Program-made: the position numbers and the translations under genes
From: an uncultured delta proteobacterium
GTDB lineage: Bacteria; Chloroflexota; Dehalococcoidia; Dehalococcoidales; BS750m-G39
DNA length: 64,000 nt
Assembly (NCBI GenBank): GCA_963739245.1
Contig: CAVTZP010000002.1
Span: 633-64,632 of the forward strand
Direction of reading: 5' to 3'
Shown here: positions 32,530 to 63,033 of the stretch, piece by piece
Layout of the letters: each line of letters begins with the position of its first letter
Numbering within the stretch: the first letter of the stretch is position 1
Notes under the pieces: model-generated
The model's database searches: none
Seen by the model: the letters and a program-made list of their open reading frames with translations, nothing else
What the model was told of the DNA's origin: nothing

Positions 32530-32530
32530 G

Positions 32531-34984: not shown

Positions 34985-34989
34985 ACTCT

Positions 34990-35493: not shown

Positions 35494-35512
35494 ATATTCT
35501 CCTTTCTGGCGT

Positions 35513-35536
35513 CTAGATATATACTAGATATATAAT
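35513..35536. promoter_or_regulatory. Tandem 11-bp repeat / quasi-palindrome over a -10 box in a divergent promoter region
   Basis: CTAGATATATA at 35513-35523 and 35524-35534; TATAAT at 35531-35536. Confidence 0.5.
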
Positions 35537-35612
35537 GGTATTTCGGTGTATTATAGCACAGGCGGACAAGGAGAAAAGACCTGACAAGAGAATATCTGAG
35601 GGAGTTATAGTT

Positions 35613-45799: not shown

Positions 45800-45872
45800 G
45801 CCCCTGTAGCTCAGATGGATAGAGCAGCGGTTTCCTAAACCGCGTGCCCGGGTTCGAGTCCCGGCAGGGGTA
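45800..45872 (+). tRNA. tRNA-Arg (CCT)
   Basis: Acceptor GCCCCTG/CAGGGGT; anticodon arm GCGGT-TTCCTAA-ACCGC. Confidence 0.95.
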
Positions 45873-45919
45873 GGAGTTAATTTTTGCCTAAATTTATGGT
45901 AATATAATTTATGAGAGGT

Positions 45920-45995
45920 AGGAGTGTAGCTCAGTTGGTAGAGCAGCGGTCTCCAAAACCGCAGGTCGCGGGTTCGAATCCTGCCACTCCTGCCA
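45920..45995 (+). tRNA. tRNA-Trp (CCA)
   Basis: Acceptor AGGAGTG/CACTCCT; anticodon arm GCGGT-CTCCAAA-ACCGC; encoded CCA. Confidence 0.97.
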
Positions 45996-46026
45996 GTATT
46001 ATGAAGTGAGGAGGTAACAGACGCCA

Positions 46027-46119
46027 ATGTGTTGTATCAAAAAGCCAAAGGTCAAAAAGGCCATCACCCCAAAGAAAAAGACCATTGTCACGAAGAAAAA
46101 GACGCAAAAGAGTAGGTAA
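46027..46119 (+). CDS. Lysine-rich peptide (30 aa)
   Basis: Read by hand: GAGGAGG upstream; MCCIKKPKVKKAITPKKKTIVTKKKTQKSR; stop 3 nt before the next ATG. Confidence 0.45.
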   Translation: MCCIKKPKVKKAITPKKKTIVTKKKTQKSR

Positions 46120-46122
46120 AAG

Positions 46123-46329
46123 ATGAGGGTGTTTATTGGTCTTATCCTGATTGCGGTAGGTGTTTTTGCCTTACTGGTCAAGCTTGATGTGCTCAGTGGC
46201 TCACTCTGGAGCTATGTTTGGCCGAGCATTATTATTGCCCTGGGGCTGTCTTTCCTTTGGGGCCGACGCTCCGGTCGCAGCTGGCACCGCTGGTGCTGCC
46301 ACGGTGAAGAAAAGGAGAAAAAACACTGA
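46123..46329 (+). CDS. Small two-TM membrane protein (LiaI/DUF5668-like)
   Basis: FIGLILI..G...L...L.......W...WP.I.I..GL pattern. Confidence 0.7.
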   Translation: MRVFIGLILIAVGVFALLVKLDVLSGSLWSYVWPSIIIALGLSFLWGRRSGRSWHRWCCHGEEKEKKH

Positions 46330-46335
46330 AGCTAT

Positions 46336-46423
46336 GCCGAGGTGGCGGAAGCTGGTAGACGCGCCATCTTGAGGGGGTGGTGAGCGTAAGCTCGTCGGAG
46401 TTCAAATCTCCGCCTCGGCACCA
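46336..46423 (+). tRNA. tRNA-Leu (GAG)
   Basis: Acceptor GCCGAGG/CCTCGGC; anticodon arm CCATC-TTGAGGG-GGTGG; long variable arm; encoded CCA. Confidence 0.96.
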
Positions 46424-46434
46424 AGAAATAGACT

Positions 46435-46461
46435 CCCACGAAAATCAAGGGTTTTCGTGGG
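46435..46461. repeat. Palindrome in the tRNA spacer, similar to the rplD insertion
   Basis: CCCACGAAAATC-AAG-GGTTTTCGTGGG (12-bp stem, one G:U). Confidence 0.6.
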
Positions 46462-46467
46462 TGATAG

Positions 46468-46542
46468 GCGGAAGTAGTTCAGCGGTAGAACGCCTCCTTG
46501 CCAAGGAGGAGGTCGCGAGTTCGAATCTCGTCTTCCGCTCCA
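46468..46542 (+). tRNA. tRNA-Gly (GCC)
   Basis: Acceptor GCGGAAG/CTTCCGC; anticodon arm CCTCC-TTGCCAA-GGAGG; encoded CCA. Confidence 0.97.
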
Positions 46543-46555
46543 AAAATGGTTGAGA

Positions 46556-46631
46556 GGCGACGTAGCCAAGTGGTTAAGGCGGGGGTCTGCAAAACCCCTA
46601 TTCACCGGTTCGAATCCGGTCGTCGCCTCCA
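46556..46631 (+). tRNA. tRNA-Cys (GCA)
   Basis: Acceptor GGCGACG/CGTCGCC; anticodon arm GGGGT-CTGCAAA-ACCCC; U73 discriminator; encoded CCA. Confidence 0.97.
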
Positions 46632-47190: not shown

Positions 47191-47526
47191 AATGGGCAGG
47201 AATTATTGAGAAAAATATCTGGGGTGAAACAACCATAAAACATGAATGACATTATGCTTAGAAATTGCACATTAGGTAACATTCACTCAGATTGTGCAGT
47301 TCTACCAATTAGATGAACTGCGCAGTGACGCTATACATGCCATCAAACGACTGGTGATACATGCTTAATTAGCTTGAAATCGAATGTTTTGTTGCTCAAG
47401 GTGGGTTAGGAGTGCTTCAGCTCAAAGATTTCTCTCGTTAGATTTATTGTTTCGATTTTCATGTTGCTCCTACCTCCATAAGGTATATTCTACTGAATGC
47501 GTTTGGATAAAGCCAATATTGGGAGT

Positions 47527-47555
47527 TTGACAAGACAGTAGGTAAATGATAATAT
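47527..47555 (+). promoter_or_regulatory. Candidate promoter of mobB-radical SAM-bamB2
   Basis: TTGACA (47527-47532), 17 bp spacer, TAATAT (47550-47555). Confidence 0.65.
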
Positions 47556-47601
47556 TAATATAGCGTAAAATTAACGCAATACTAAATGTGAGATATACTG
47601 A

Positions 47602-48177
47602 ATGATACCAATTATTTCTTTTATTGGCAGTTCCGGTTCAGGTAAGACTACTTTGCTTGAAAAAGTGGTTACCGAGCTTAAAAAACGCGGCATCAGGGTT
47701 GCCGTCATTAAACATTCGCATTATGGCGACCTTGGCTTCGACAAAAACGGTAAGGATAGTCAACGTTATACAACAGCCGGGGCTGAGGTAGTCATTGTTA
47801 GTAGTCCGCAGGAAATAGTCTTCATGAAAAAGACAGATCATGATCTATCACCCGATGAGATTACACGCCTTATTGATCCCGATATTGACCTTGTTCTCAC
47901 CGAAGGTTTTAAAAGTGCTGGTACTTTTAAAATTGAAGTACACCGAAAGGTACTGGAATCAGAGTTGCTGGCAAAGCCAGAGCAGCTTCTGGCGGTGATA
48001 ACTGATGAACCGCTCGATATTCAGGTTCCCCAATTTGATGTAATGAAAAATAATACCGTCGAAATCGCTGATTTAATCGAAAAATGGCTGTCAGGTCAGC
48101 CCAAAAGAGACATTGAACTTGTAATCAATAAAGAATTCGTTGAATTAATAAAGAAAAGCAAGGCACTAAAATTGTGA
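47602..48177 (+). CDS. mobB: Molybdopterin-guanine dinucleotide biosynthesis protein B (copy 1, short C-terminus)
   Basis: G.SGSGKTTLLEK, IKH, GKDS, D..L.EGFK, KIEVHR. Confidence 0.9.
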   Translation: MIPIISFIGSSGSGKTTLLEKVVTELKKRGIRVAVIKHSHYGDLGFDKNGKDSQRYTTAGAEVVIVSSPQEIVFMKKTDHDLSPDEITRLIDPDIDLVLTEGFKSAGTFKIEVHRKVLESELLAKPEQLLAVITDEPLDIQVPQFDVMKNNTVEIADLIEKWLSGQPKRDIELVINKEFVELIKKSKALKL

Positions 48178-48212
48178 GAAGACTAACAGACCATAATAAA
48201 CAATTAAAAAGA

Positions 48213-49337
48213 ATGTATTCTACTAAAGATGGAAGATTGCAGGGAGAAGCTGGTTGGGCGAAACTTGCTTTCTTCTGGTTCATCTTATTTCTATCATACA
48301 AGTGCACAAGAAGGTGTAGCTATTGTTATGCTTTTAATCAAGTTGGTGATGATAATAAGATGGAAATGGATGAGAATACATTTTCAAGGTTATTAGAGTG
48401 GATCCCAGAAGTCTGGAAAGTTAATAACGTTAAAGTGAACGCCATTAGCTTTCTTGGTGGGGAACCATTATTGAGAACGGATAGAATTAAGAAAATTATG
48501 GATTCTGTCTATAAAAATACTGACGGCATGCAGGGAGATGTTTATACAAATGGTGATTTAATAGATTCTGTAAATTGGGATGACCTTGAAGATATCCAAT
48601 GGATGGTAACAAATATTACAGATATTAGTATTGAAGAACTATCGAGAAGAATGAAGATAATCAGCGAAAGGTCAAATGTTAAAGGTCAAACAATAACAGC
48701 TACCTTGGACGATTATAACTTAGAGAGAGTTCTTGATATAACAAGATTCGGAATAGAAAATGGATATCGCTTGAGATACTATAGGAATTTATACCGAGGA
48801 TTGGATACTGAATATAAGAAAATATTATTGAAGAAATATCACGAAGTATGTGATTTATTGGAAAATTATATTATTAAGGGATACGATGTCCAGACTACTT
48901 TCTTGTTTGATACTTTAATTCCTTCCTGGAATCTTGAATCTTCTCCATATCTTTGCGGGAAAAGTATTGCCACAGTATATCCCGATGGAACGGTTGGGCC
49001 ATGTCTTAGAAACCAATCATTTAAAACCGGAACAATATTTGACGCAAATCCTTTAAGTAAAATTCAATGTGACACATTTCTTTATGATTTTAGAAAACCA
49101 GACATCCCGGATGAATGTAGGGAGTGTGAATCTAAAACCGCCTGCCAGGGAGGATGCCCGTTTGATAAGTTGTTGTTGACCGGTACTACATCAGGAAAAT
49201 CTGTTGTATGTGATATACACAAAGAAATTATTCCAAGATTAAGATATTTAGATAAATTAAAAAACGATATGAAAAACCCAGTACATAGAGGTGATAAAAA
49301 TGAGATACGCAGAGACAGGATACAACCTAGAAATTGA
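48213..49337 (+). CDS. Radical SAM protein with SPASM domain
   Basis: CTRRCSYC, GGEPLL, C......PDG.V.PC, CRECESKTACQGGCP...C; start uncertain (48174 GTG or 48213 ATG). Confidence 0.9.
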   Translation: MYSTKDGRLQGEAGWAKLAFFWFILFLSYKCTRRCSYCYAFNQVGDDNKMEMDENTFSRLLEWIPEVWKVNNVKVNAISFLGGEPLLRTDRIKKIMDSVYKNTDGMQGDVYTNGDLIDSVNWDDLEDIQWMVTNITDISIEELSRRMKIISERSNVKGQTITATLDDYNLERVLDITRFGIENGYRLRYYRNLYRGLDTEYKKILLKKYHEVCDLLENYIIKGYDVQTTFLFDTLIPSWNLESSPYLCGKSIATVYPDGTVGPCLRNQSFKTGTIFDANPLSKIQCDTFLYDFRKPDIPDECRECESKTACQGGCPFDKLLLTGTTSGKSVVCDIHKEIIPRLRYLDKLKNDMKNPVHRGDKNEIRRDRIQPRN

Positions 49338-51288
49338 CCTATCCCGAGGAACCATTGAGAGGGTAGCAACTGACCCGAAATTAACCGAACTTCACCTTGG
49401 CGGGTTAGGTACCAGCGTCAAGATGCACTGGGATAGGGTTCCCCCTGAAACTAAACCATTTGATGCCGAGAATCTGCTAATATTCAGCGCCGGTCTTTTA
49501 TGCGGCACACCAGCTTTCAGCTGCAATCGTACCGTTGTTACCTTCGTTTCTCCTCAGTCGGAGTTATTAGCATATCCAATGATGGGGGGATTCTGGGCAC
49601 CAGAACTGAAATTTGCCGGTTATGACAAAGTGGTCATTCAGGGCAAGTCCCCCAAGTGGGTTTATTTGTGGATAAACGATGACAAGGTAGAAATCCGTGA
49701 TGCCTCTCATTTAAAGGGCAAAGGCGCTCTTGAAACTGTAGAGCTTATTCGACAGGAGCTGAATGAGCCGAAAGCCCAGGTGGCAGCTATTGGCCTGGCC
49801 GGTGAAAATCGGGTCTTCACGGCTTCCATCGAGCAGGGCAGGTCCAGCGCCAGCCGACTCGGAGGAGGCGCCGTTATGGGGGACAAAAAATTAAAGGCGA
49901 TAGCTGTTCGTGGAACAAAAGACGTCAATCTTGCCCGAGGGGCTGAATTCATGGAGCATATGAATGCTGTGCTGGAATATATAAAGTTCCGAAATGCAAA
50001 TCCCATTCCAAACGTAATGACCATTTTATCCGGGATTGGGTCGCCACAGGAGATGAAAAACACTGATGAGAAGTGGCACACTGAAAGTTTCATGTGGGGA
50101 AATGCCCGTGTTCGGAGAAGAGACTTCTGGACCAAGGAACACGAAGAGGAATGGACGACGACTCAATTAAGTGCGATAAAGCGGCTAATAAGTTGCTATA
50201 ACTGTCCGCAGCAATGCGGAGCATTAATTTCCTACAAGGATGTTCCAAATTACATGGCGAAATGCTTCGGGAAACTTACCTATTCAATGGCGGCCCAGGT
50301 AGACAGGCTGGATTTTAACTTTAGAATCCTTCAGCGTGCTACGGAGTATGGAGTGGACTCATTCTCAACCCCGCAAATTTTGGCCTTCGGTGTCGAGCTC
50401 TATGAAGCCGGCATTCTAACTGACCAGGACATGCCAGGATTTCCGTCCGATAACGAGGGGAGATTTTTCTGGTTGCTTGACCGGGTTGCCCGGCGGGAAG
50501 GAATTGGAGATATTCTGGCCGACGGCACTTATTGGGCGGCCAAAAAGATTGGCAAGGGCGCAGAAGTATTTGCTCATAATATCATCAAGAAACACGAGCA
50601 GCTTCCTCTCAAGCTGGGAACGCTGGATCCCCTTTATTTCCTTATGTATTCTACCAACGAGAAGATAAGCATTACCCAAATTGAAGGGAATTGGCCCCAG
50701 GCGGCTTTCCCGACGAGGGAGGAGAGAGAAGAGTTTGTAAAGGATTGGCCCCAGCTTCCTGATGAAAAGTTTAAGCAATATTTACTGGACTGGGAACCAC
50801 GGGGAGATCACGGGATACCATATTTCCCAACTCCTGAAATGTGCTGCGAAATTGTGGATTGGATGGAGACGCTGCACAACATTGATGACGCCATCGGATT
50901 GTGCGCCGGTATGGGATCATTTTGCTTAAAGCCTCCCTATCATATACACAATTACCCGAAAATAATCTCGGCGGCGACTGGGATGGATATAGATGAAGCC
51001 GGACTAAAGAAAATAGTCAGGAGGAGCCGTAATTTACACAGAGCATTTAATGTAAAAAGAGGCATGAGGAGAGCTGATGAGAAGCCGCCTGAAGACCATT
51101 GGAAAAAAAGATATCCCGAGCTCGAAGAAAAACTCCTAGATACGTATTACAAATTCAAGGGATGGAATAATGACGGTATTCCTACTAAAGAAACTTTACG
51201 GGAATTAGATTTGGGTTATGTTGCGGAAGACTTAGAACAGAGAGGGATACTAAAAAACGGCCAATCCGACCACCCCGACCATAAATAG
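49300..51288 (+). CDS. bamB: Tungsten aldehyde-oxidoreductase family, class II benzoyl-CoA reductase catalytic subunit BamB paralog
   Basis: MRYAETGY.LE.DL, MMGGFWAPELK, SIEQGRSSASR, SPQEMK..DEKWHTE, SCYNCP..C, KCF, KKHEQLPLKL; E251, H260 and C322 fall at the residue numbers I recall for Geobacter BamB. Confidence 0.9.
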   Translation: MRYAETGYNLEIDLSRGTIERVATDPKLTELHLGGLGTSVKMHWDRVPPETKPFDAENLLIFSAGLLCGTPAFSCNRTVVTFVSPQSELLAYPMMGGFWAPELKFAGYDKVVIQGKSPKWVYLWINDDKVEIRDASHLKGKGALETVELIRQELNEPKAQVAAIGLAGENRVFTASIEQGRSSASRLGGGAVMGDKKLKAIAVRGTKDVNLARGAEFMEHMNAVLEYIKFRNANPIPNVMTILSGIGSPQEMKNTDEKWHTESFMWGNARVRRRDFWTKEHEEEWTTTQLSAIKRLISCYNCPQQCGALISYKDVPNYMAKCFGKLTYSMAAQVDRLDFNFRILQRATEYGVDSFSTPQILAFGVELYEAGILTDQDMPGFPSDNEGRFFWLLDRVARREGIGDILADGTYWAAKKIGKGAEVFAHNIIKKHEQLPLKLGTLDPLYFLMYSTNEKISITQIEGNWPQAAFPTREEREEFVKDWPQLPDEKFKQYLLDWEPRGDHGIPYFPTPEMCCEIVDWMETLHNIDDAIGLCAGMGSFCLKPPYHIHNYPKIISAATGMDIDEAGLKKIVRRSRNLHRAFNVKRGMRRADEKPPEDHWKKRYPELEEKLLDTYYKFKGWNNDGIPTKETLRELDLGYVAEDLEQRGILKNGQSDHPDHK

Positions 51289-51365
51289 GAGAAGCAGGCT
51301 CTAGACAACCTGAACCGGGCGGGCTCCCCGAAAAGCCATGGTTCAGCAAGCATCGAAGGCTTCGA

Positions 51366-52013
51366 TTATGAGGATTTCTTCTTCAGGAAAATCTGGACGC
51401 TTGTAATCTCTTTTACCCCCTTGAGAGATGAGGCGATAGCGGTAACGATATTGCTAATAATCTCTCTGGGGAAGATACTCAGGGATATAGGGGCGTTGTT
51501 TACACAAAGTATGACGCGTTCACTTTGTGGTTTGATAAAACCTTGCTCCAAAAGGTCGGCTAAGCCTTTAATATCATCAAGGGGGAACTGCCTGGTCTTG
51601 GTTTCCACAGGTTCGTCGGTGACTATGGCGCAAAGCTTCTTAACAGAAGCAAAGGGTGGGCCGGCTTCCTTGCGGTGAACCTCTATTTCGGGCGCATCGC
51701 CCTCTTTGAAGCCTTCACTCAGGATGATGTCATAATCCTCGCCAAGGAAGCGGGCTATCTCCTCAAGGCTAGTATCTGGGGCAATAGGTTTGATTAACAT
51801 AATCTTATCTGAGCCACTAATAATGGTAGCCTCGCTTCCAGCCTGGATGTGGCGCCAGCTATCCTTACCCGGCTCGCCAAGGGTCAGGTTTTGGCGGGTG
51901 TGCTTAATGGTAGCCACCCGATAGCCCCTTGATTTTAGCTCCTGAACCAGCTTCTCAATAAGGGTCGTTTTTCCTGATTTTGTTTTACCTATAATTGAAA
52001 CGATGGGAGGCAT
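51366..52013 (-). CDS. mobB: Molybdopterin-guanine dinucleotide biosynthesis protein B (copy 2, C-terminal extension)
   Basis: GKTKSGKTTLIEKL, TIKH, GKDSWRH..AG, EGFK, IEVHR. Confidence 0.9.
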   Translation of the reverse strand: MPPIVSIIGKTKSGKTTLIEKLVQELKSRGYRVATIKHTRQNLTLGEPGKDSWRHIQAGSEATIISGSDKIMLIKPIAPDTSLEEIARFLGEDYDIILSEGFKEGDAPEIEVHRKEAGPPFASVKKLCAIVTDEPVETKTRQFPLDDIKGLADLLEQGFIKPQSERVILCVNNAPISLSIFPREIISNIVTAIASSLKGVKEITSVQIFLKKKSS

Positions 52014-52238
52014 TGTTTATCGCTTTCGTGTTGAGTTAACGGTATGAAACCAGGGAGTTATGATAACACACTGCCAATATGCTGTCAAAGAATTGGATAC
52101 CTCTAGCCTTTTGGTATACATTTCGGTTATAATTATAGGCAACGTTTTCGGTTAAATTCGGAACCCAACCATTGAAAATCGGCATTCGATATTTGATGCC
52201 TAGAATTTAGATTCATCTGGATTAAGGGGGAATAAATA

Positions 52239-54272
52239 ATGCAGGGTACAGTCTACTTTTATTTGCTGTTCTGGGGAGTATTTATCGTGTCCTTGGGAGT
52301 ATTCATGTATCGTACCAGACAGCTATGGCAATATATGTTCCTGGGACAGAAAGAAAGCACGGCGGGCAGGCTAAGGCAGATCGTTAATACTCTAGTCTAT
52401 GTTTTCAGTCAACTTTGTCAGCTCAAAAACTTCCGCTCTAAAGACCGGGCACCTTTAGGTCATGCCTTGCTGGTATGGGGTTTCTTTGTTTCCGTACTCT
52501 TTTATTTCTTCTTTATTATACTCTCGGAAGGTCTTGGTCTAGTTGGTTTACAGGATACACAGTTCTATTTCTATTTCACCTGGATAATGGACTTCATGGC
52601 TGCCTTCATCTTCATCGGCGCGGCGTGGGCTCTCATCAGGCGGTATATCATCAGACCGGCCCGCCTTAAAGGAGAGCAGACCTGGGAGGCATTTATCATC
52701 CTCCTTTCTGTATTGGCCCATCCCGTCACCCATGTTTTTGAAGTCGGAACGAAGATTGCCCTGGGGGATGCGCCCGCGGGGCTGGGACACACCTTATTGC
52801 CACCGATTAGCGCCTGGATCAGTAACTTGTTTGTGGGAAATCCTGGCCTGGATGGATGGCATATCGGTTTCTTCTGGGCACACTGGCTCACTGTGGTCCT
52901 GGTGTTGATCCTCATTCCTTATACAAGATACATACATATTATAGCCTCCGTCTTCAATGGAATTCTGCGTAACCCCCAGCGTATGGGTACGTTGAAATCA
53001 ATTGACCTTGAAAACGCAGAGTCTTTCGGGGCAGCAAAAATCGATAGTCTTAGCTGGAAGCAAAACCTGGACTTATATTCCTGCGTGGTCTGCGGCAATT
53101 GCCAGGAGTTGTGCCCGGCTTACGCCACCGGCAAACCACTTAACCCCAAGAAGGTGATTCAAGACCTGAAAAAACAACTCTTAAAGGTTGGGCCGGTAAT
53201 ATTAAAAGCGAGGGCAAAAGGTGGAGAGGTACCGGCAGACATTAATGTCACTCTGGCAGGGAATATCGTTACCGAAGATGAGATATGGGCATGCACCACC
53301 TGTGGCGCCTGCGATAATGTTTGTCCGGTCTGGGTAGACCACATCGATAAGCTGGTAGACCTCAGGCGTAACCTCATTCTCGAACAATCTGCTATGCCAG
53401 ATACCGCTAAGGTAGCCCTTGAAAGTATTGAGAAACGGGGTCATCCCTGGCGCGGGACTACTATGACCCGTACCGATTGGACACAGGGACTTAATATCAA
53501 GACTATGTCTGAAAATGCCAATGTGGACATTCTCTTCTGGGTCGGTTGTACGGAAGCCCTGGAAGATAGGAGTCTCAGGATATCTCAAGCGTTCGCCAGG
53601 GTAATGCAGCAAGCAGGAATTAATTTTGGTATTCTCGGTACAGAAGAAAGTTGCTGCGGCGACCCGGCGCGCCGCTTAGGCAATGAATACCTCTTCCAGA
53701 TGCAGGCACAGAAAAATATCGAGGTCTTAAAGGGTTATAACGTTAAGAAGATAGTTGCCGCCTGCCCGCACTGTTATAACACCCTGAAGAATGAGTATCC
53801 CCAGTTCGGCGGCAACTTCGAGGTCATTCACCATACCGAATTCATTGGTAACCTTATTAAAGAAGGTAAGCTACAAATTAATAAAGGTGGCTACGGGAAA
53901 ATCACCTATCACGATTCCTGCTACTTAGGACGGCATAACGAGATTTACCAGCCTCCCCGGCAAGTACTGAAATCTCTACCTGACATCAAGCTGGTCGAAA
54001 TGGAGAATAATAAAAAACGTGGCTTTTGCTGCGGGGGTGGCGGCGGCCAGATGTGGATGGAAGAGCGCATTGGTACCCGTATATCCGAAAACCGGATGGA
54101 CCAGATAATTGCCACCAGAGCTGACATGGTAGCCACCGCCTGTCCTTACTGCCTACAGATGTTCGATGATGCCATCAAAGCCAAACAGGTTGAGGAAAAG
54201 CTGAAGGTAAAGGATATCGCCGAGATTATTGCCGAATCAGCTCAGACGAAGAGAAAATGTGCCTTCCTCTGA
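52239..54272 (+). CDS. Membrane-bound heterodisulfide-reductase-like (HdrE/D, FadF-type) Fe-S oxidoreductase
   Basis: N-terminal TM helices with His; CVVCGNCQELCP, CTTCGACDNVCP; two CCG domains (SCCGD, FCCGGGG). Confidence 0.88.
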   Translation: MQGTVYFYLLFWGVFIVSLGVFMYRTRQLWQYMFLGQKESTAGRLRQIVNTLVYVFSQLCQLKNFRSKDRAPLGHALLVWGFFVSVLFYFFFIILSEGLGLVGLQDTQFYFYFTWIMDFMAAFIFIGAAWALIRRYIIRPARLKGEQTWEAFIILLSVLAHPVTHVFEVGTKIALGDAPAGLGHTLLPPISAWISNLFVGNPGLDGWHIGFFWAHWLTVVLVLILIPYTRYIHIIASVFNGILRNPQRMGTLKSIDLENAESFGAAKIDSLSWKQNLDLYSCVVCGNCQELCPAYATGKPLNPKKVIQDLKKQLLKVGPVILKARAKGGEVPADINVTLAGNIVTEDEIWACTTCGACDNVCPVWVDHIDKLVDLRRNLILEQSAMPDTAKVALESIEKRGHPWRGTTMTRTDWTQGLNIKTMSENANVDILFWVGCTEALEDRSLRISQAFARVMQQAGINFGILGTEESCCGDPARRLGNEYLFQMQAQKNIEVLKGYNVKKIVAACPHCYNTLKNEYPQFGGNFEVIHHTEFIGNLIKEGKLQINKGGYGKITYHDSCYLGRHNEIYQPPRQVLKSLPDIKLVEMENNKKRGFCCGGGGGQMWMEERIGTRISENRMDQIIATRADMVATACPYCLQMFDDAIKAKQVEEKLKVKDIAEIIAESAQTKRKCAFL

Positions 54273-54875
54273 CTCAGCTTCGAAAGAAGGTGAGGAAGAC
54301 TTTAGAGCTTCAATAAGGACGTAGGCGGCTTGCAGTGCCTCTGTAGGGCAAAGCGGAAAACATTCTTTGCAGTTCCAGCATTCCTTGGAGGCTATCTCCG
54401 GAATGAAACTTATCTCTCGCCTTGTTCCTCTGTCGACAAAGCCGATAGCGTTCTTCTTCTTGACCTCAGCACAGTATCTAACACATAGACCACAAAGAAT
54501 GCAAAATGAGTGCTCTTTTTCAAAATGGGCTTTATTTGCTCCATACTCTTGAGCCAAATCCTGCAATACCCCGGCTTCTGGAGCATGAGCTAGCACCAGC
54601 TCCAAAAGCATTTTGCGAATTTTATCTACCTTCTCCGACCTGGTTCTTACCACCAAATTTTCTTCAACGGGGTAAAGACAGGCAGCAACGAGATTTGTCC
54701 TACCGCGAGTCTCTACTTCTACTGTGCAAATTCGGCAGGCCCCATAAGGTTCTAATTTCTCGTGGTGGCAAAGTGTAGGAATAGATATCCCCGCACTTTG
54801 GGCTGCCTCCAAAATGGTCATCCCTTCCCTGGCTTTAACTTCTCTTCCATCAATCTGTAAAATGATTTCACTCAT
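54237..54875 (-). CDS. bamI: BamI / NuoG N-terminal-like Fe-S subunit
   Basis: IPTLCHH..L.P.GACR.C.VE, CILCGLCVRYC, CWNCKECFPLCPT; position after bamH. Confidence 0.82.
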   Translation of the reverse strand: MSEIILQIDGREVKAREGMTILEAAQSAGISIPTLCHHEKLEPYGACRICTVEVETRGRTNLVAACLYPVEENLVVRTRSEKVDKIRKMLLELVLAHAPEAGVLQDLAQEYGANKAHFEKEHSFCILCGLCVRYCAEVKKKNAIGFVDRGTRREISFIPEIASKECWNCKECFPLCPTEALQAAYVLIEALKSSSPSFEAESEEGTFSLRLS

Positions 54876-56800
54876 CTTTCTTTACTCTCTCTGGCTATAA
54901 CCCTTGCTTCTTCAGGTATGGGAGACGGAACAGGCTCGCCAGAAATCTTCTTCACCGCACCAAAACGAGGGGGGCAAACTTCAAAACAAGTTCCGCACTT
55001 TGTGCATTTCTCCTGGTCGATTACATGGATCTGTTTCTTGTCACCTACAATCGCCCCGGCAGGGCATTGCCTAAGGCAAATCATACAGGCCTGGCACTTC
55101 TTTGGGTCGATATAGTACGAGATTAGCTCCTTGCAGAAATAAGCTGGGCACCTCTTCTCCTTGATGTGTGCCTCATACTCGTCCCTGAAGTAGCGTATCG
55201 TGCTTAGAACCGGGTTAGGGGCAGACCTGCCTAAAGCGCAAAGCGAGGCATCTCTTGTTACCTCGGCTAGCTCCTCCAAAAGCTCGATGTCGCCCTCTCT
55301 TCCCTTTCCTTTGGTGATATTAGATAGAATCTTAAGCATCTGCCTGATGCCTTCACGGCAGGGGACACATTTGCCACACGATTCATCACTGAGGAAGTTA
55401 AGGAAGTACCTGGCGACATCAACCATACAGGTATCTTCATCCATTACAATCATCCCACCTGAACCCATCATTGAGCCAACCTTGGTGAGTTCATCGAAAT
55501 CAACTTTCATATCCAGCTGTTCCGCGGGGATGCATCCTCCGGATGGACCCCCGGTCTGCACTGCTTTGAACTTCTTACCTGTGGGGATGCCACCACCTAT
55601 ATTAAAAATAATCTCTCTTAAAGTAGTGCCCATGGGTACTTCAACTAAGCCAGTATTATTGACTTTGCCCACGAGGGAGAACACCTTTGTGCCTTTGCTT
55701 CCTGCGGTGCCGAGACCGGCAAACCAATCAACGCCCTTGTTGATTATCTGAGGGACAAAAGCCCATGTCTCAACATTATTCAAGTTGCTGGGTCTATCCC
55801 AAATGCCCTTAATGGCGGTGTGGATATACTTCGGTCTGGGCTCTCCTACCCTGCCTTCTATTGCCGTCATCAGAGCACTCGATTCACCAGAGACGAAAGC
55901 ACCGGCTCCTTGGTGTACTTTAACAGTGAAATCAAAGCCTGAGCCAAGGATATTTTTGCCCAGGAGACCATACTCCTCAGCCTGCTTGATAGCGATGGTC
56001 ACATTCTCTACTGCTAAGGGGTATTCCTGTCGAACGTAAATATAGCCCTCGTGAGAACCAATGGCATAGGCTCCGATGATCAACCCCTCAAGAACCATGT
56101 GAGGGTTCCCCTCAAGTTCAGCTCTATTCATATAAGCTCCGGGGTCTCCCTCGTCGGCATTGACGATCACATACTTTATCTCACCGGGGGCATTGCGACA
56201 TTCCTCCCACTTTCTCCCTGCGGGAAATCCACCGCCTCCCCTCCCTCTCAGGTTAGATTTTTTCACTTCCTCCAATACTTGCTCGGGGGTCATCTGGGAA
56301 AGAACTTTGGCCAAGGCAGAATAACCACCGAGCGCCAGATAGTCATCGATGTTCTTAGGGTCAATTCTTCCGTTGGAACCCAAAACAAGCCGCTCCTGGT
56401 TCTTGTAGAAGGGAATTTCAGATTCATGAATTATCTTTTCATTGGTGTTGGGGTCGGTATAGAGTAAACGCTCTATGACCTTCTTCTCCTTTATGGTCTG
56501 GGAGACAATTTCGGGAACATCCTTAGGCTCTATCTGTAAGTAACATATTTCCTCAGGGTGAATAACTATGATAGGGCCCCTCTCACAAAAACCATGGCAA
56601 CCAGTCCTTCTAAAGTCTACCTCGGCGCTTAATCCTTGTTTTTTAATCTCCTCTTCAATACTCGCCGCAATTTCGCCGCTACCGGAAGCGTGGCAAGCAG
56701 TTCCGGAACAGAGTGTAATACAAGGCTTATTCGGGTCTCTTTTGGACAGGATTCCCTTCCTGAGTTCTTCCAATTCAGCGGGTGATTTTATCCGCGCCAT
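54872..56800 (-). CDS. bamH: BamH / NuoF-like NADH-binding FMN subunit with 2x[4Fe-4S] tail
   Basis: LRGRGGGGFP.G.KW, NADEGDPGA, G.GGPSGG, ESCGKC.PCREG, CALG, C..C..C...CP twice. Confidence 0.88.
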   Translation of the reverse strand: MARIKSPAELEELRKGILSKRDPNKPCITLCSGTACHASGSGEIAASIEEEIKKQGLSAEVDFRRTGCHGFCERGPIIVIHPEEICYLQIEPKDVPEIVSQTIKEKKVIERLLYTDPNTNEKIIHESEIPFYKNQERLVLGSNGRIDPKNIDDYLALGGYSALAKVLSQMTPEQVLEEVKKSNLRGRGGGGFPAGRKWEECRNAPGEIKYVIVNADEGDPGAYMNRAELEGNPHMVLEGLIIGAYAIGSHEGYIYVRQEYPLAVENVTIAIKQAEEYGLLGKNILGSGFDFTVKVHQGAGAFVSGESSALMTAIEGRVGEPRPKYIHTAIKGIWDRPSNLNNVETWAFVPQIINKGVDWFAGLGTAGSKGTKVFSLVGKVNNTGLVEVPMGTTLREIIFNIGGGIPTGKKFKAVQTGGPSGGCIPAEQLDMKVDFDELTKVGSMMGSGGMIVMDEDTCMVDVARYFLNFLSDESCGKCVPCREGIRQMLKILSNITKGKGREGDIELLEELAEVTRDASLCALGRSAPNPVLSTIRYFRDEYEAHIKEKRCPAYFCKELISYYIDPKKCQACMICLRQCPAGAIVGDKKQIHVIDQEKCTKCGTCFEVCPPRFGAVKKISGEPVPSPIPEEARVIARESKER

Positions 56801-56809
56801 AATTTTCCC

Positions 56810-57262
56810 CTAATCATAGTTTTTTAACACGTCTCCTGTCTTGGCTGGTACCATCTTACCGTGATACTTCCCATCAACTTCCATCACCGGTCCTAAAGCA
56901 CAGCAGCCGAGACAGTTAACAGTCTCCAGGCTAAACTTTAAATCCGAGTCCGTTTCGCCAGGTCTAATTCCAATCAGGTCTTGAACCGTGTCAAGGACTC
57001 GCGGCGCACCACGAACATGACAGGCAGTACCCATACAAATATGAATTTCATGACGTCCTTTAGGAACTAAACTAAAGGCTTTATAAAATGTAGCTATATG
57101 CTGTATCCGGCTTAAAGGCACTTGTAATTTCTTACTGACCTTCTCTAATACTTCCTTGGGAAGCCAGCGATTTTCGCTCTGAATCTCCAGTAATATTTGA
57201 ATTAGCGAATCGGCTTTGCCCTGATGTTTATCAATAATCTGCTCGATTTTACCCTCATCCAT
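56810..57262 (-). CDS. bamG: BamG / NuoE-like [2Fe-2S] subunit
   Basis: ATFY..F, C.GTACHVRG, V.CLGCC..GP. Confidence 0.88.
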   Translation of the reverse strand: MDEGKIEQIIDKHQGKADSLIQILLEIQSENRWLPKEVLEKVSKKLQVPLSRIQHIATFYKAFSLVPKGRHEIHICMGTACHVRGAPRVLDTVQDLIGIRPGETDSDLKFSLETVNCLGCCALGPVMEVDGKYHGKMVPAKTGDVLKNYD

Positions 57263-57291
57263 AGCTGCTGTCCTAACCCTCTTCTTTCACT

Positions 57292-58059
57292 TTAAGCGGG
57301 AACAAAACGCTTCTGGCTTTCGTCAAACCTGATTAATCCTTGCCTTGCTGAACTATTAAGGTGTCTTGATACTTCAGACGGATTTAAGCCTAAAATCTCA
57401 GAAATTTCTCCAGTGGAAAGGGGCCTTTCTCGCAGGAGTAACATAATTTGGCTTATTGCCAATTTATCTACAATTAATTCATGAAATAACCTATCTAACT
57501 CCTCACTGGTGAAAAATTTCTTATATTCTTCGTCTGTAGCAAAATGCACTCTCAGCCTCTCCCTTTCCACCAGCTTAATGTAGGGGACTAAATTTTTAAC
57601 TGCTTCAAGTTTTAACTTTAATCCCTTTTCATCTATTCCTTCGCCTTTTCCCAGAGGTCCTAATTCCTTCAGCTTCTTGGTAAAGTCAGTAATAACTTCG
57701 GCGAAACGGATTCCTTCAGAGGCAGATACCCATTCCAGCCTTAGCCTTTCGGGGTTCACCCCTATCTGTCCCAGTAATTTTTTAGTTAGATGCATCATGC
57801 TTAATGCATCGTAATTTCCCTCCGTGATGTAATGGCATTCGCCAAGCCAACAACCGCCGATAAACACCCCGTCTGTTCCGTTTGAGAAAGCCCGGAGTAT
57901 AAATGCCGGGTCAACTCTACCGGAGCACATCACCCTTATCACCCTTATATTAGTGGGGTATTGATACCGGGAAACTCCGGCAAGGTCTGCCCCTGCGTAG
58001 CAACACCAATTACATAAAAACCCTAACATCCTTGGTTCAAAATCGTAGCTCGCAACCAT
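57292..58059 (-). CDS. bamF: BamF / MvhD-like subunit with C-terminal winged HTH
   Basis: FLCNWCCYAGAD.AG, CSGRVDP, GC..GECHY..GN, W.SASEG; C-terminal PLSTGEISEILG..PSEVSRHL. Confidence 0.85.
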   Translation of the reverse strand: MVASYDFEPRMLGFLCNWCCYAGADLAGVSRYQYPTNIRVIRVMCSGRVDPAFILRAFSNGTDGVFIGGCWLGECHYITEGNYDALSMMHLTKKLLGQIGVNPERLRLEWVSASEGIRFAEVITDFTKKLKELGPLGKGEGIDEKGLKLKLEAVKNLVPYIKLVERERLRVHFATDEEYKKFFTSEELDRLFHELIVDKLAISQIMLLLRERPLSTGEISEILGLNPSEVSRHLNSSARQGLIRFDESQKRFVPA

Positions 58060-58093
58060 GTCTTAGCTCACTCCTAAGGTAATCCCTCTTTGT

Positions 58094-61000
58094 TCATACA
58101 AGGGCTTGAACCTTCGCCAGGTCTGGAACCGCCGCGTCAATTTGGCGAAAGATCTCTTCATCAGTAAAGTGCTTCAGAGAAATAGCCCCTGTCGGACACT
58201 TCGAATTACAGAGACCGTCTCCCTTACAGAGGACAGGAATAACCCTGGCCTTTTTGCCTTGTGGTGTATCATAAAACTCTATAGCACCATACTTACAAAC
58301 CGAAATACAAGCCCCACACGCTATACACTTACTCTCATTTACCTCGCAAATAGCACCAGAGGCGGTGACTGAATCCTTGGAAAGAATGGTTGCCGCCCGG
58401 CCGGCAGCTCCGTAAGCCTGGCTAATCGCTTCCGATATATGCTTGGGGTAGTGAGCCATCCCGCACAGGAAAACGCCATCGGCAGCAAAATCAACCGGCC
58501 GTAATTTTACATGGGCTTCCTGGAAGAAACCATCCGGGTTCAAAGGTACCTTGAATAACCGGGATATTTCAGTATTCGTTGCCGAAGGAATAACGGCGGC
58601 AGCTAAAGCGAGTAAATCGGCATCTATAGCAATTTTCTTACCTAAAATCGGATCGGTCACGGTAACCCTTAGAATACGCTGACCACCCTCTTCGATAGCT
58701 TCCACCTCGGGTTTATCATCCGGCTCATAGCGGATGAACTTCACTTCCCGCTCCGCCGCTTCCCGGTAATAATCCTCTTTAAACCCATAAGTTCTCATAT
58801 CCCGATAGATAATGTAGATATCCATCTCGGGGTTTTTCTCTTTTAGTTTCAAGGCGTTCTTTATAGAATGACTGCAACATACCCGGCTGCAATAATTTCT
58901 GTCTTTTTGTCGGCAACCTACACATTGAATCATCACCAGGCTCTTGGCGTTAACCACCCTCGGTTCCCCTTTGGCGATTTGCTCCTCTAACTCCACCAGG
59001 GTCAATACCCTGTCATCTTTCCCATAAAGGTACTCGGTAGGTTTATATTCTTCAGCACCGGTAGCGATGACGGCTATTCCATGGTGTATCTCCCTGACCC
59101 TTCCTCCAGACGTTACCTTGGTTATGAAATTCCCCACATAACCGGAAGCCTCGGTGATGGTAGAATCAGTAGATACTTGTGAATTAAGGGGTGCTGGTAA
59201 ACCTTGCGGATAATATCACTCAGATATGCTTGAACATCCATCCCTTCCAGGGTGTAATGAATTCTTCGAGCCATTGGGATGCTGGTTAACTCGGCGTATG
59301 ACTTCGGCCAGGTATGTTTGTACATCCATGCCTTCCAGGGTGTAATGAAGCTCTTCGCGCCATTCCCCCCAACTCTGTATCCTTTTCCACCAGGTAAACC
59401 TCAAATCCCTGGTTGGCTAAGCTCAGAGCACTGGTCATCCCGGCCACGCCTCCGCCGACTACTAACGCCCTTTTGTCGACCGGCAGGTCAAATTCCTGTA
59501 AAGGCTGTAAAAGAGCGGCTCGGGCTACCGACATCCGGACTATATCCTTTGCCTTTTGGGTGGCAGCTTCCTTTTCTCGAGAGTGGACCCAGGAGCAATG
59601 TTCCCTTATATTGGCAAATTCAAAGTAATATTGATTAATTCCCCCCTCGCGAAGCGTATCCCGGAATAACGGCTCATGTGTCCTGGGGGTACAGGCGGCG
59701 ACAACCACGCGATTGAGTCCCTTTTCTTTGATTGCGTCTGCTATCCGTTGGGCAGCATCAGTAGAACACGAAAAGAGGTCTTCTTGAGCGTGGACAACAT
59801 TGTCTAGGGTCAAAGCATATTCAACTACCGAAGGAACATCCACCACTCTTCCGATATTAGCTCCACAATGACAGACAAAGACCCCCACCCTTGGTTCCTC
59901 ACCTCGAGACATCCCTTTCCGGTGGATATACCCTTTCTCTGGCCAGCTTCCCTCGCCGGTGGGCAAGGAGTTGACTGCAAAGGGCATCAGCCCCGCTGGC
60001 GGTCATAACCGACTCGGGGATATCTATAGGACCCTGGAAGGCTCCGCTGACAAAAATTCCCGGGCGGGAGGTCTCAATAGGAGTAGCAGGATTGGTTTTG
60101 CAGAATCTGGTGAGCGTTAAGTTCGATGCCGAACTTATCAGCCAATTCTTCCACATCATCAGGAGGGTTCAACCCGACGGATAATACCACCAGGTCGAAT
60201 TCCTCTTCCTTTACTCCGTCATCGGTAGTAGAGTATTTTATGGTTACATTCTTGCTTTCTGGCAGCTCTTTCCCTATTGATACGTAGCTTCTTATAAATC
60301 GAACGCCGGGAAGGTTCTCCGTTCTTTGATAGAATCGCTCGAAGTCCTTGCCAAATGACCGAATATCATTATGGAATATAGTAGCCTCAATCTCACTGTC
60401 ATGGTCTTTTGCCAGAATCACCTGCTTCTGGGTGTAGGTGCAGCATACGGCTGAACAATAGCTGTTGCCGCCCGGGATAACCTGTCTGGAACCGACGCAC
60501 TGAATCCAGGCTATCTTCTTCGGATGCTTCCCGTCAGAAGGGCGCCTTATCTCACCTTCGTAAGGCCCGGTGGAACATAATATCCGTTCAAAGTCAAGGC
60601 TGGTTACTACATTCCTGAACTTTCCGTAGCCATAGTCGCCCCTCAGCTTGGGGTCAAATGTCTCATAGCCCGGAGACAGAATTATCGCCCCTACCTCTAC
60701 TTCTACCTTCTCCTCCTTTTGATGAAGGTCTATAGCGTTATTCTTGCAGACTCCTACGCAAATGTTACATTTTCCGTCTTTAAGGAAAAGGCAGGTTTCA
60801 GGGTCTATATAAGTGACAAGCGGAACTGCTTGAGAAAAGTATATATGGCTGCATTTACTAAAAGATAAGTTTTGATTATATTTATTGGGGACCTTAACCG
60901 GGCAGTACTCAGTACAGGTAGTACAACCCCGGCATTTGTCATCTGATAATGTATCTGGGCTTTTTAATCAGGGTTACCTTGAAGTCTCCTGCTTCCCCTT

Positions 61001-61298
61001 CTACCCTGTCAACTTCAGTATAGGTCAGGATTTCTATATTGGGATGCCGGCTGCATTCAATAAACTTGGGAGATTCAATGCACATGGAGCAGTCATTGGT
61101 GGGGAAGGTCTTATCAAGCTGGGCCATCTTGCCGCCGATAGCCGGTGATTTGTCAACCAAGTAAACCTTAAAACCCATATCGGCCAGATCAAGGGAGGCT
61201 TGGATACCGCTGATCCCTCCACCGACAACCATAACATCGCCAATATTACTTTCTGCGGGACTATTAACTAATTGTCCTTCAACTGGTTCTTTTTCCAC
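58094..61298 (-). pseudogene. bamE: BamE / HdrA-like flavoprotein, broken by about six indels and an internal duplication (pseudogene or sequence error)
   Basis: Fragments join into HdrA: [23 protein letters not shown]...YCS.VCC, GVFVCHCG.NI, AACTPRTHE, GGGVAG, QCVGCR, FFQEAHVKLRP; frame changes near 60944, 60108, 59904, 59351, 59275 and 59177. Confidence 0.85.
59188..59363 (-). repeat. Diverged tandem duplication of a 29-codon segment inside bamE
   Basis: Copy 1 at 59275-59363 and copy 2 at 59188-59274 both encode MARRxHYTLEGMDVQxYLxxxIRxVxQHP. Confidence 0.9.
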
Positions 61299-61331
61299 TT
61301 TTCTCCGTCCTTATCAGGATTCTTCGCTTCC

Positions 61332-62475
61332 CTAAATCACTTCCTGGATAATTTCTGTGATGTCTTTAATCTCTATGACTTCACTATTCTCCAGGGTTAA
61401 CCTGCTATCCTCAAAATTGATGATGCAATATGGGCAGGAAGTAACCAGCACCTCAGCCCCGACCTCAATAGCTTGTTCTAATCTGAGGTCGGAGAATCTT
61501 TCACCCTTTGGAGTGTCCATCCAAATCCTGCCTCCTCCCCCTCCGCAACAGAGACTATCTTCCCGCGAATCAGCCATCTCAATCAGTTCTAAACCAGGTA
61601 CCTTCTTTAAGACCTCTCGGGGTTCGTCATATATGCCATTATGCCGACCCAGGTAACATGGGTCATGATAAGTAACTTTCTTCCCATACTCCTTGGTGAG
61701 CTCAAGCCTTCCCTCATTAATAAGCTCGAATAAATATTGGGAGATATGAACCACCTCAAAGTTGACCTTAAATTCGGGATACTCGTTTTTGAAGGTGTGG
61801 TAGCAATGAGGGGAAGAAACAAGGATTTTCTTCACCCCATTATCGATAAAAGTTTTGATGTTTTCCCTGGCTAAGCGTTTGAATAATTCCTCATCGCCCG
61901 CCTTGCGGATGCTTTCTCCACAGCAATTCTCCTTGGGACCCAGTATCCCAAAATCTACCCCTGCCCTGTTAAGGATATTGGCTGTGGCAGTAGCTACCTT
62001 TTTTAATCTTGGGTCATAGCTGAGGTAGCAGCCGGGGAAATATAAAATTTCCGTCCCCTCGGTGAACGTTTTTACAGACAGACCTTCTGCCCAATCTGCC
62101 CTCTTTGCTCGTTCTTCACCCAAGGGGTTACCTTCAGCACCGAGGCTTGCACTTACGGTGTGGATTGGAGCCGGAGAAATCCCTGCTTCCGAGGCAATCC
62201 TGCGGAAGGATAGCACTAACGTCTATCGTTCCTACTCCCCTGGGGCACCGCTGAGGGCATCTTCCGCAGGTAGTACAACGCCATATATCTTCACCTTCTA
62301 TCTCAGGCAAACCGAACGTAGCCTGTCGGACTATGTTGCGCATACTGAAGTTTCTAACCCTGTTCCACGGACAAACAGTATCACACAATCCGCATTGATA
62401 GCAGAATTTGAAGGCTTCTCCACCAGCCTCTTTTATGGCATCTATTGCCTCTTTGAAGGGGGCTACAATCTCCAC
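61332..62475 (-). pseudogene. bamD: BamD / HdrCD-like protein with one frameshift near 62216
   Basis: CYQCGLCDTVCPW and CTTCGRCPQRCP in 62134-62475; CCG motifs (NCCGE, SPHC, YHDPCYLGRHN, LCCGGGGG) in 61332-62216. Confidence 0.85.
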
Positions 62476-62508
62476 TATCTTTTAATCCTCTTCTTTCGCC
62501 TTAATGTT

Positions 62509-63033
62509 TTAGCCCTTTGCTAATCGGGTAACGGTATCCATTACCTTCTTCACTCCATGTTTTTTTACTAATGATTCTAATCCTATCTCCATCTCCTCCC
62601 GCTTCTCTTCTTCTTCCCCTTCCTCTTCCCTTTCTTCGTAAGTCAGGGCATCATTTAAGCACCACTGAACACACATCGGCTCTTGTAGTGGCGGTTCTTC
62701 TTCACACATATCACATTTTAGAGGGAGATCGGAATCAGGGTCTTTGAAAAGCTTCCGGGATGGGCAGGAAGCCCGGCAGAAGCCACACTCGTCATATTCC
62801 TTTCCGTCAATCGTATAAATGTCTCTGCCATTACATTCGGCTTCAGTATACTCACCGGCAATTACCGGAACATAAATATCTTTTAGTGGCTCAAAAAGCA
62901 CCCGAATCCGAGACCTCTCCGGATTAGTGCTGCTATATTTTGGCGCAGCGTGAAAGGCGGAGCAGATTACCTCACATGCCCGGCAACCATTGCATTTATC
63001 AACATCGATCTTGATTACTTTAACTTTTTTCAT
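62509..63033 (-). CDS. bamC: BamC electron-transfer Fe-S subunit
   Basis: IDVDKCNGCRACEVICSAFH, RSRIRV, ECGFCRASCPSR, LPLKCDMCE..P...EP.CV.WC; in frame with the bamB C-terminus. Confidence 0.87.
   Translation of the reverse strand: MKKVKVIKIDVDKCNGCRACEVICSAFHAAPKYSSTNPERSRIRVLFEPLKDIYVPVIAGEYTEAECNGRDIYTIDGKEYDECGFCRASCPSRKLFKDPDSDLPLKCDMCEEEPPLQEPMCVQWCLNDALTYEEREEEGEEEEKREEMEIGLESLVKKHGVKKVMDTVTRLAKG

Follow-up and report, generated by a model that had tools for sequence, protein, structure and literature searches.

A radical SAM/SPASM gene between mobB and bamB in a Dehalococcoidales genome: a candidate maturation factor for one clade of benzoyl-CoA reductase tungsten subunits

We have analysed a window of 64,000 nucleotides (positions 633 to 64,632 of the forward strand of contig CAVTZP010000002.1, assembly GCA_963739245.1) from an uncultured bacterium of the Dehalococcoidales, in which a gene for a radical S-adenosylmethionine (SAM) enzyme with a SPASM domain lies directly before bamB2, a gene for the predicted catalytic subunit of a class II benzoyl-CoA reductase. 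This reductase performs one of the hardest reductions in biology and is key to the degradation of aromatic compounds by strict anaerobes. The features needed to follow the argument are these, in positions of the window:

47473-47601, plus strand: upstream region with a sigma-70-like site at 47527-47555 (a single consensus match)
47602-48177, plus strand: mobB1, MobB-family GTPase, first gene of the operon (Pfam MobB 1.2e-38; TIGR00176 125.6 bits)
48174-49337, plus strand: radical SAM/SPASM gene, 387 amino acids, candidate BamB2 maturase (matches to Radical_SAM, SPASM and TIGR04085)
49300-51288 (ATG start), plus strand: bamB2, predicted tungsten-pterin catalytic subunit of a class II benzoyl/aryl-CoA reductase (AFOR_N 3.9e-68, AFOR_C 3.5e-65)
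50923-50925, plus strand: codon for Cys542 of BamB2 (position 541 in Geobacter metallireducens, where the residue is Pro)
51366-52013, minus strand: mobB2, a convergent second MobB (TIGR00176 134.3 bits)

The order mobB - radical SAM/SPASM - bamB2 - convergent mobB was already given in a preliminary description of this DNA, and all four open reading frames are indeed found at these positions. The junctions are as tight as had been described: the radical SAM gene abuts mobB1, its GTG start overlapping the mobB1 stop by 4 nt, and its non-conserved, low-confidence tail covers the ATG of bamB2 with an overlap of 38 nt. The GTG start is supported by the conserved N-terminus of the homologues (MRxxTEHxxQLKRMYS). 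It is also correct that bamB2 is not followed by a bamC; there are bamC-I genes on the opposite strand at a distance of 3 kb, and another contig of the assembly (G000:C3, hereafter C3; the contig of the window is C2) has a further bamC-I set, this one without bamB. The single promoter proposed in front of mobB1 stands less firmly. The sequence TTGACA-17-TAATAT is there at 47527-47555, but such matches are not enriched over shuffled sequence (16 sites in the region, 12.3 expected), so that this promoter is plausible at most and should be called putative. An Rfam scan found no molybdenum or tungsten cofactor riboswitch or other RNA 5' of mobB1 apart from five tRNAs.

The composition of the locus is uneven. 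Between 47000 and 49000 the GC content falls from about 49% to 41% and then to 34%; mobB1 has 40%, and the radical SAM gene 34% (29% at third codon positions) against some 47-50% for bamB2 and the contig. Because of this low value the assembly was checked for a chimera. A Logan contig of 6963 nt from run X2 spans 47558-52300 with 2 differences, and a contig of 2805 nt from another study (X5) spans 47547-50351 at 98.8%, reaching from mobB1 across the radical SAM gene and through half of bamB2. The junctions are genuine and there is no assembly chimera.

By its sequence, the protein is a member of the radical SAM/SPASM superfamily. The radical SAM motif CxxxCxxC is formed by C44, C48 and C51 (PF04055, 35.7 bits for a cut-off of 29.5), and the SPASM domain is recognised by PF13186 (23.6 bits, cut-off 21.5) and TIGR04085 (37.9 bits, cut-off 27), with seven cysteines (C261, C277, C315, C318, C324, C328 and C346) that are invariant in 38 homologues. 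A seven-cysteine SPASM domain binds two auxiliary 4Fe-4S clusters. No curated NCBIfam family is reached, every named family model remaining below its cut-off. Three candidates were set aside on these grounds: PapB (NF047865), the best NCBIfam match, with 64.6 bits for a cut-off of 340; anSME (TIGR03942), with 49.3 bits for 349; and TIGR04317, named "tungsten cofactor oxidoreductase radical SAM maturase", with 25.2 bits for 380 and a match confined to the radical SAM core (model positions 10-113).

As for the partner, bamB2 is best taken as a true BamB orthologue, matching BamB of G. metallireducens (PDB 4z3w) end to end (residues 1-654, 1046 bits) and keeping, in the numbering of that protein, the tungsten ligand Cys322 and the [4Fe-4S] cysteines C299, C302, C306 and C534. 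mobB1, whose Walker A motif reads GSSGSGKT, and mobB2 both pass TIGR00176 (cut-off 76.2 bits) and both contain GxxxxGKT.

The preliminary description had proposed that the SPASM enzyme modifies BamB2 or its tungsten cofactor, and had suggested a neighbourhood analysis. We scanned one genome per species, which gave 83 carriers and 80 loci kept, 79 of them usable for counts. Far from being rarely linked to bamB or AOR genes, the radical SAM gene is accompanied by BamB, on its own strand and no more than 3 kb distant, at 61 of the 79 loci; BamB is present anywhere in the locus at 64. A search of the whole genomes of 12 carriers found BamB in all 12, including five whose fetched locus has none. 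BamC is found within 3 kb at 40 loci, MoeA at 39 (directly adjacent at 24, sometimes on both sides), FdhD at 5 and MobB at only 2, the present window not included. Some bam gene or MoeA is present in 75 of the 79 loci, and the remaining four are contigs that end early. The linkage is maintained through at least three gene orders (rSAM-BamB, often overlapping or less than 40 nt apart; rSAM-MoeA-BamB; BamB-BamC-rSAM, where rSAM is the radical SAM gene) and at least eight phyla. The carriers are almost all known or suspected anaerobic degraders of aromatic compounds, for example Pelotomaculum terephthalicicum, Syntrophorhabdus aromaticivorans, Sporotomaculum syntrophicum, Syntrophus buswellii, Desulfoprunum benzoelyticum, Desulfosarcina cetonica, Desulfobulbus Tol-SR, Desulfosporosinus species and metagenome-assembled genomes (MAGs) of Dehalococcoidales. 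The gene had been said to lie outside the bamB-I set as it is known, and this agrees with the published bamB-I descriptions that could be searched, none of which mentions such a gene. Full-text searching likewise found no paper that ties a radical SAM/SPASM gene to bamB or to class II benzoyl-CoA reductase, and a maturase is not mentioned in a 2025 review or in a 2026 cryo-EM preprint on this enzyme.

The cassette as first drawn is, however, not the conserved unit. The linkage to MobB is local to this lineage: among the loci, a homologue of mobB1 (71% amino acid identity) is found only upstream of the radical SAM gene of a second Dehalococcoidales locus (L007), where the order is paaX-moeA-mobB-rSAM-bamB-bamC-bamD. 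The general partner is MoeA. Since MoeA lies near BamB in only 3 of 20 loci that have no radical SAM gene (loci where BamC always follows BamB), it tracks the radical SAM gene and not BamB. The absence of bamC after bamB2 is also a local feature, because a linked BamB is usually followed by BamC (40 of 79). Finally, mobB2 must be withdrawn from the cassette. Its identity is 41% with mobB1 and 90% with a copy at C3:7728-8357, and it falls inside a duplicated mobB2-hdrD-bamIHGFEDC module, which makes it part of the neighbouring module rather than of the radical SAM operon. What is left is one operon of mobB1, the radical SAM/SPASM gene and bamB2. The proposal that the enzyme serves one BamB clade as a dedicated accessory (maturation) factor has in our judgement about an even chance of being right.

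A different role within the same pathway has to be considered here: the enzyme might modify BamC or another subunit, or repair or reactivate a damaged cluster or cofactor, without ever touching BamB. Such a role would suit the 15 loci where the radical SAM gene stands among bamD/E/F, bamG/H/I-like genes or moeA with no BamB in the fetched locus (Syntrophus buswellii, Sporotomaculum and Pelotomaculum are examples), as well as the fact that the gene is dispensable for most genomes with BamB. Against it, the position directly beside BamB is by far the commonest, and the operon of the window contains, besides the radical SAM gene, only mobB1 and bamB2, with neither bamC nor any other bam gene. We therefore consider a role aimed at another component to be quite unlikely.

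The family itself is tight. In a collection of 5.8 billion proteins there are 377 relatives, and the best 120, which are 72-91% identical, carry such names as Peptococcaceae, Desulfosporosinus, Desulfocucumis, Syntrophorhabdus, Acidobacteriota, Chitinivibrionia and Planctomycetota. Over the at least eight phyla the identity of the proteins is 60-91%, and an alignment of 17 members has a mean column identity of 78%. Beyond this group an exhaustive search of representatives shows a sharp drop: the next clusters are 34-48% identical, with equal length and an equal cysteine pattern.

The history of the gene in this genome differs from that of its neighbour. Its DNA is 85-88% identical to alleles of a Syntrophorhabdales MAG, several Desulfosporosinus, Pelotomaculum and Desulfotomaculum, and only 78.5% identical to the allele of a Dehalococcoidales relative (L006); the best DNA matches of bamB2 are in other lineages than those of the radical SAM gene. 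In the class to which the window belongs, the gene is present in 1 of 201 genomes, namely this one. The GC content of 34%, together with the likeness to foreign alleles, indicates that the radical SAM gene was acquired separately and inserted before bamB2, apparently from a source of low-GC Firmicute type. Five tRNA genes (45800-46628) lie just 5' of the low-GC stretch with mobB1 and the radical SAM gene and are a possible integration site.

One could conclude from this history that the gene is a passenger, a mobile, phage-related radical SAM gene of unrelated function that happens to land in bam regions. The GC content is anomalous in several hosts (this window and the loci L004, L016, L060 and L068, which share the GC deficit), the DNA similarities indicate horizontal transfer, some sister clusters lie on phage-like contigs, and there is the tRNA cluster just upstream. 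We find this very unlikely all the same. A passenger would hardly be found on the same strand beside one BamB clade, often overlapping it, in 61 of 79 species from at least eight phyla and in three gene orders; protein identities of 60-91% under evident purifying selection would not be explained; and the locus of the window has no defence-island or prophage context. On the contrary, a gene that arrives alone and is retained exactly before bamB2 argues for functional coupling rather than for descent in a shared block.

A tree of 80 BamB sequences separates two clades. The Geobacter-type clade (support 100*) contains the crystallised enzyme and also bamB1, a second BamB gene that begins beyond the window and ends inside it. 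The other contains bamB2 and every linked BamB except that of locus L044, where BamB and the radical SAM gene are on opposite strands, about 2.4 kb apart. The invariant changes of this second clade relative to the Geobacter type include Pro541 to Cys, Val579 to His, Leu537 to Met and Tyr526 to Asn, which correspond to Cys542, His580, Met538 and Asn527 in the numbering of BamB2. Cys542 is present in 73 of 73 sequences of the radical-SAM-linked clade and in none of the 7 of Geobacter type; it is situated seven residues past the fourth [4Fe-4S] ligand, beside the loop of the iron-sulfur cluster and the pterin. The residues Glu251, His255, Glu257 and His260, which bind zinc or relay protons, have been called invariant in BamB (PMC12096430). 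BamB2 retains E251, E257 and H260, with Thr in place of His255, as in 74% of its clade. This set of residues, Thr255 included, hints at another substrate or another proton path. The radical SAM gene is an accessory of one BamB clade and not a requirement of BamB in general.

We next ask on what the enzyme might act. The AlphaFold2 model computed from an alignment of 38 sequences, distant relatives included, has a pLDDT of 89 (a model from 17 close homologues only, with a pLDDT of 49, was unusable). In Foldseek comparisons with the PDB it is closest to SPASM enzymes that modify peptides or proteins, namely CteB, ChlB and anSME (TM 0.61-0.68), anSME being the best full-length structural match (TM 0.65-0.68). 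The small-molecule enzymes BtrN and MoaA reach TM 0.3-0.45, and BtrN, SpeY, MoaA and viperin match the core only.

One might also think of a maturase of a small ribosomally synthesised and post-translationally modified peptide (RiPP) whose gene has been overlooked, as the best sequence matches in NCBIfam and the PDB are peptide maturases: PapB, CteB (33.5 bits) and PqqE. These scores are far under the family cut-offs (340 bits in the case of PapB). The stretch before the radical SAM motif is only about 35 residues long, which leaves no RRE domain, and there is no intergenic space on either side of the gene in the operon. No conserved small open reading frame was found beside the gene in about 80 loci, and none of those in the 525-nt upstream region is conserved in any of about 100 loci. 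A RiPP system is accordingly highly improbable.

The main rival is cofactor chemistry: for this BamB clade, the enzyme would leave the protein alone and alter the pyranopterin or tungsten cofactor, or take part in assembling or inserting the bis-pterin. This reading is favoured by the adjacency of MoeA, the closest recurring neighbour besides BamB and BamC (39 of 79 loci, sometimes on both sides), which does not generally accompany BamB in loci that lack the radical SAM gene; MobB moreover flanks the radical SAM gene here, in L007 and in L030, and FdhD lies within 3 kb of it in 5 loci. It is disfavoured by the fold comparison, since the nearest structures are protein- and peptide-modifying SPASM enzymes, and small-molecule SPASM or twitch enzymes and MoaA fit far more poorly. 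The genome, in addition, already has a canonical moaA (Radical_SAM and Mob_synth_C) that shares an operon with moaC on C3, and a mobA-like gene next to moeA. Lastly, the solved Geobacter BamB has been described with an ordinary tungsten bis-pterin (PMC12096430), although it belongs to the other clade. Taking both sides together, we regard cofactor tailoring as unlikely. The same inventory bears on an argument of the preliminary description, that MobB is not obviously needed by enzymes of this family. With moaA-moaC, the mobA-like gene, moeA and three mobB genes in the genome, the presence of MobB here is not anomalous, and the argument loses most of its force.

Our best reading is that the radical SAM/SPASM protein matures BamB2 or the tungsten cofactor of BamB2, by a chemistry that we infer. 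That the enzyme functions with BamB2 or its cofactor seems to us rather likely; that its substrate is the BamB2 polypeptide itself is possible, though we would put it on the doubtful side. If a protein modification is assumed, the enzyme would cleave SAM reductively at the cluster held by CxxxCxxC, and the 5'-deoxyadenosyl radical would abstract hydrogen at some residue of freshly synthesised BamB2. The two SPASM clusters would handle the electron, as in anSME and the thioether-forming enzymes, and an oxidation or cross-link would be installed near the [4Fe-4S]/pterin loop, with Cys542 as the best single candidate site. This might take place before or during the loading of the W-bis-pyranopterin by MoeA, here perhaps with MobB. 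BamBs outside the Geobacter clade may carry a feature never seen so far and installed by a radical SAM enzyme, either a cross-link or oxidation at or near Cys542 or a tailored pyranopterin, by which the tungsten site is tuned; we put this forward tentatively and think it rather unlikely as it stands.

Several observations weigh against the maturase interpretation and should be set out together. First, the radical SAM gene is not needed by most BamB enzymes: in a sample of 401 genomes spread evenly over the phylum of Desulfoprunum (Desulfobacterota), it is present in 5 of the 118 genomes with BamB (BamB-like genes being called at E <= 1e-150) and absent in 113. Nor does another radical SAM gene lie within 6 kb of BamB in loci that lack this one. 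Second, the clade boundary does not coincide with the gene, since 16 BamBs from genomes without it also fall into the second clade, some of them on contigs of 0.7-4.4 Mb. Cys542 is kept in clade members without the gene too, and no BamB column tracks its presence within the clade, the best one differing by 0.53. Third, MoeA, MobB and FdhD as neighbours would suit cofactor chemistry equally well, and the likeness of the modelled fold cannot fix the substrate. Fourth, three of the nearest sister clusters (35-48% identity) that could be placed lie on phage-like contigs with genes for a tail-fibre chaperone, an endolysin and a head-tail adaptor and without AOR or MoeA genes, which implies that specificity for tungsten enzymes does not extend to the wider family. 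In the Desulfobacterota sample the gene stands beside BamB in 4 of its 5 carriers. Its absence from most genomes with BamB indicates an optional enhancer or adaptor and no universal requirement.

The phage-like relatives deserve a few more words. Metagenome contigs that carry the nearest sister clusters (L106, L107, L108 and L109) encode a Peptidase_S74 tail-fibre chaperone, a Peptidase_M15 endolysin and an SU10 adaptor, and among their further neighbours are Peptidase_G2, QueC and additional radical SAM genes.

The genes around the operon can now be described:

45800-46628, plus strand: five tRNA genes in a row (Rfam tRNA, 43-73 bits)
52239-54272, plus strand: membrane-anchored HdrD/DsrK-like iron-sulfur protein with a NarI-like N-terminus and two CCG domains
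54237-64000, minus strand: bamI-H-G-F-E-D-C, then the 3' portion of the Geobacter-type bamB1 (Pfam matches)

The bamIHGFEDC genes match NuoG-N, NuoF, NuoE, FlpD/MvhD, HdrA-like, CCG and ferredoxin families in Pfam. They belong to a segment of 11.7 kb (window 51355-63035, with mobB2, the HdrD-like gene and bamIHGFEDC) that is repeated at C3:7698-19280 with 94-96% DNA identity; cobT and cobS are duplicated too (83%). This may be a real paralogy, or two strains in one bin. In the C3 copy paaX takes the place of bamB before bamC', and fdhD stands beside mobB2'. The 129 nt upstream of mobB1 (47473-47601) are 97% identical to C3:20145-20273, upstream of paaX-bamC'D'E'F'G'H'I', and Logan contigs show both continuations past 47601, one into mobB1 and one into paaX. 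The match of the two upstream regions suggests common regulation, by a shared promoter or operator, possibly one for a PaaX-like regulator. BamB2 may thus use the bam set of C3 that has no bamB, or else the adjacent set, either of which would explain the missing bamC.

The HdrD-like protein (677 amino acids) combines a NarI-like membrane domain, a ferredoxin domain and two CCG domains (CCG 7.3e-38, Nitrate_red_gam 2.2e-4). Its gene has a copy on C3 (95% identical) and a homologue beside the cassette in L007 (73%); in L007 as well as in the two copies, it diverges from the bam cluster. It is possible that in this lineage the Bam complex has its outlet to the membrane or to quinones in this fusion.

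bamB1 extends from C2:65618 to 63669, past the end of the window. It has two compensating frame shifts about 318 nt apart and no stop codon between it and bamC; in the stretch from 58094 to the window end and on to C2:65618, the frame is also interrupted once in bamD and at least four times in bamE. The positions of the breaks (about 63650, 63332, 59907 and 59353, and a stretch of 104 nt at 59171-59276) coincide with indels of one nucleotide or with a replacement relative to contigs of runs X3, X5 and X6, so that errors of the consensus, in a region confused by the repeat, look likely. We considered pseudogenisation of bamB1, bamD and bamE and dropped it, as the break points match 1-nt indels relative to independent contigs.

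Two further observations concern the molybdenum and tungsten enzymology of this genome. In C3:190000-198000 (L105), an open reading frame 3' of moaA (4836-5780), when read from its first start codon, has an N-terminal match to an RNase H domain followed by MoaC, which could be a fusion or an artefact of the choice of start codon. In the window, the region 29129-36938 contains a molybdenum enzyme of the xanthine dehydrogenase family (32531-34984, minus strand), adjoined by an unusual fusion of 836 amino acids with FAD, NAD(P) and CO-dehydrogenase-flavoprotein parts (30172-32682, minus strand), together with a zinc alcohol dehydrogenase and a PaaK-like ligase, and looks like a further module for the degradation of aromatic or heterocyclic compounds.

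Should BamBs outside the Geobacter clade carry a feature installed in this way, it would tune the tungsten site, perhaps to suit different aryl-CoA substrates or the very low potential that fermenting and syntrophic degraders require, and the radical SAM/SPASM protein would be the first maturase, whether post-translational or of the cofactor, that is known for any tungsten enzyme. In practice, how to produce class II benzoyl-CoA reductase heterologously and how to mature its tungsten site are unsolved problems, and a conserved, horizontally mobile gene that is kept beside one BamB clade and moeA is a candidate for a missing maturation step. The gene also marks its BamB clade as biochemically distinct from the only one studied structurally, that of Geobacter.

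It remains to compare the protein with known systems, from which it emerges as a member of an undescribed, enzyme-specific SPASM family that follows the pattern of anSME and is attached to a distinct BamB clade. MoaA (GTP 3',8-cyclase) is likewise a radical SAM enzyme of the molybdenum and tungsten cofactor pathway, found near cofactor genes, but it has no SPASM domain, its structural match to the window protein is poor (TM 0.35-0.44), and the genome has a MoaA of its own. QhpD, a SPASM enzyme that cross-links Cys residues within the small subunit of quinohemoprotein amine dehydrogenase, offers a precedent for SPASM cross-linking inside a subunit of a redox enzyme. TIGR04317 (W_rSAM_matur) comes close in theme, as a radical SAM protein with extra Fe-S clusters that NCBI annotates as a maturase of AOR-family tungsten enzymes; it is not known to have been characterised, and it is a separate family, the one in the window being linked with MoeA and, within the AOR superfamily, with the BamB branch. 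CteB (PDB 5WGG/5WHY) is the best structural match by E-value (5.5e-14) and PapB (NF047865) the best sequence-family match; these enzymes have an N-terminal RRE and act on leader-bearing peptides, whereas the window protein has no RRE and no precursor gene was found for it among the loci searched. A close parallel is anSME/AtsB (PDB 4K36-4K39), which is of similar size (about 370 amino acids) and likewise consists of a radical SAM core and a seven-cysteine SPASM domain for two auxiliary clusters, with no domain for peptide recognition. Homologues of the window protein are even called "arylsulfatase regulator" by several sources, although the neighbourhood of the window has neither a sulfatase nor the motif C/S-x-P/A-x-R, the candidate site here reading C-L-K-P-P. 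anSME is encoded beside the enzyme that it matures and acts on a protein side chain; the counterpart inferred here would have a tungsten-pterin enzyme as its client, and would add to radical SAM enzymology an anSME-like enzyme that serves a metallo-pterin enzyme.

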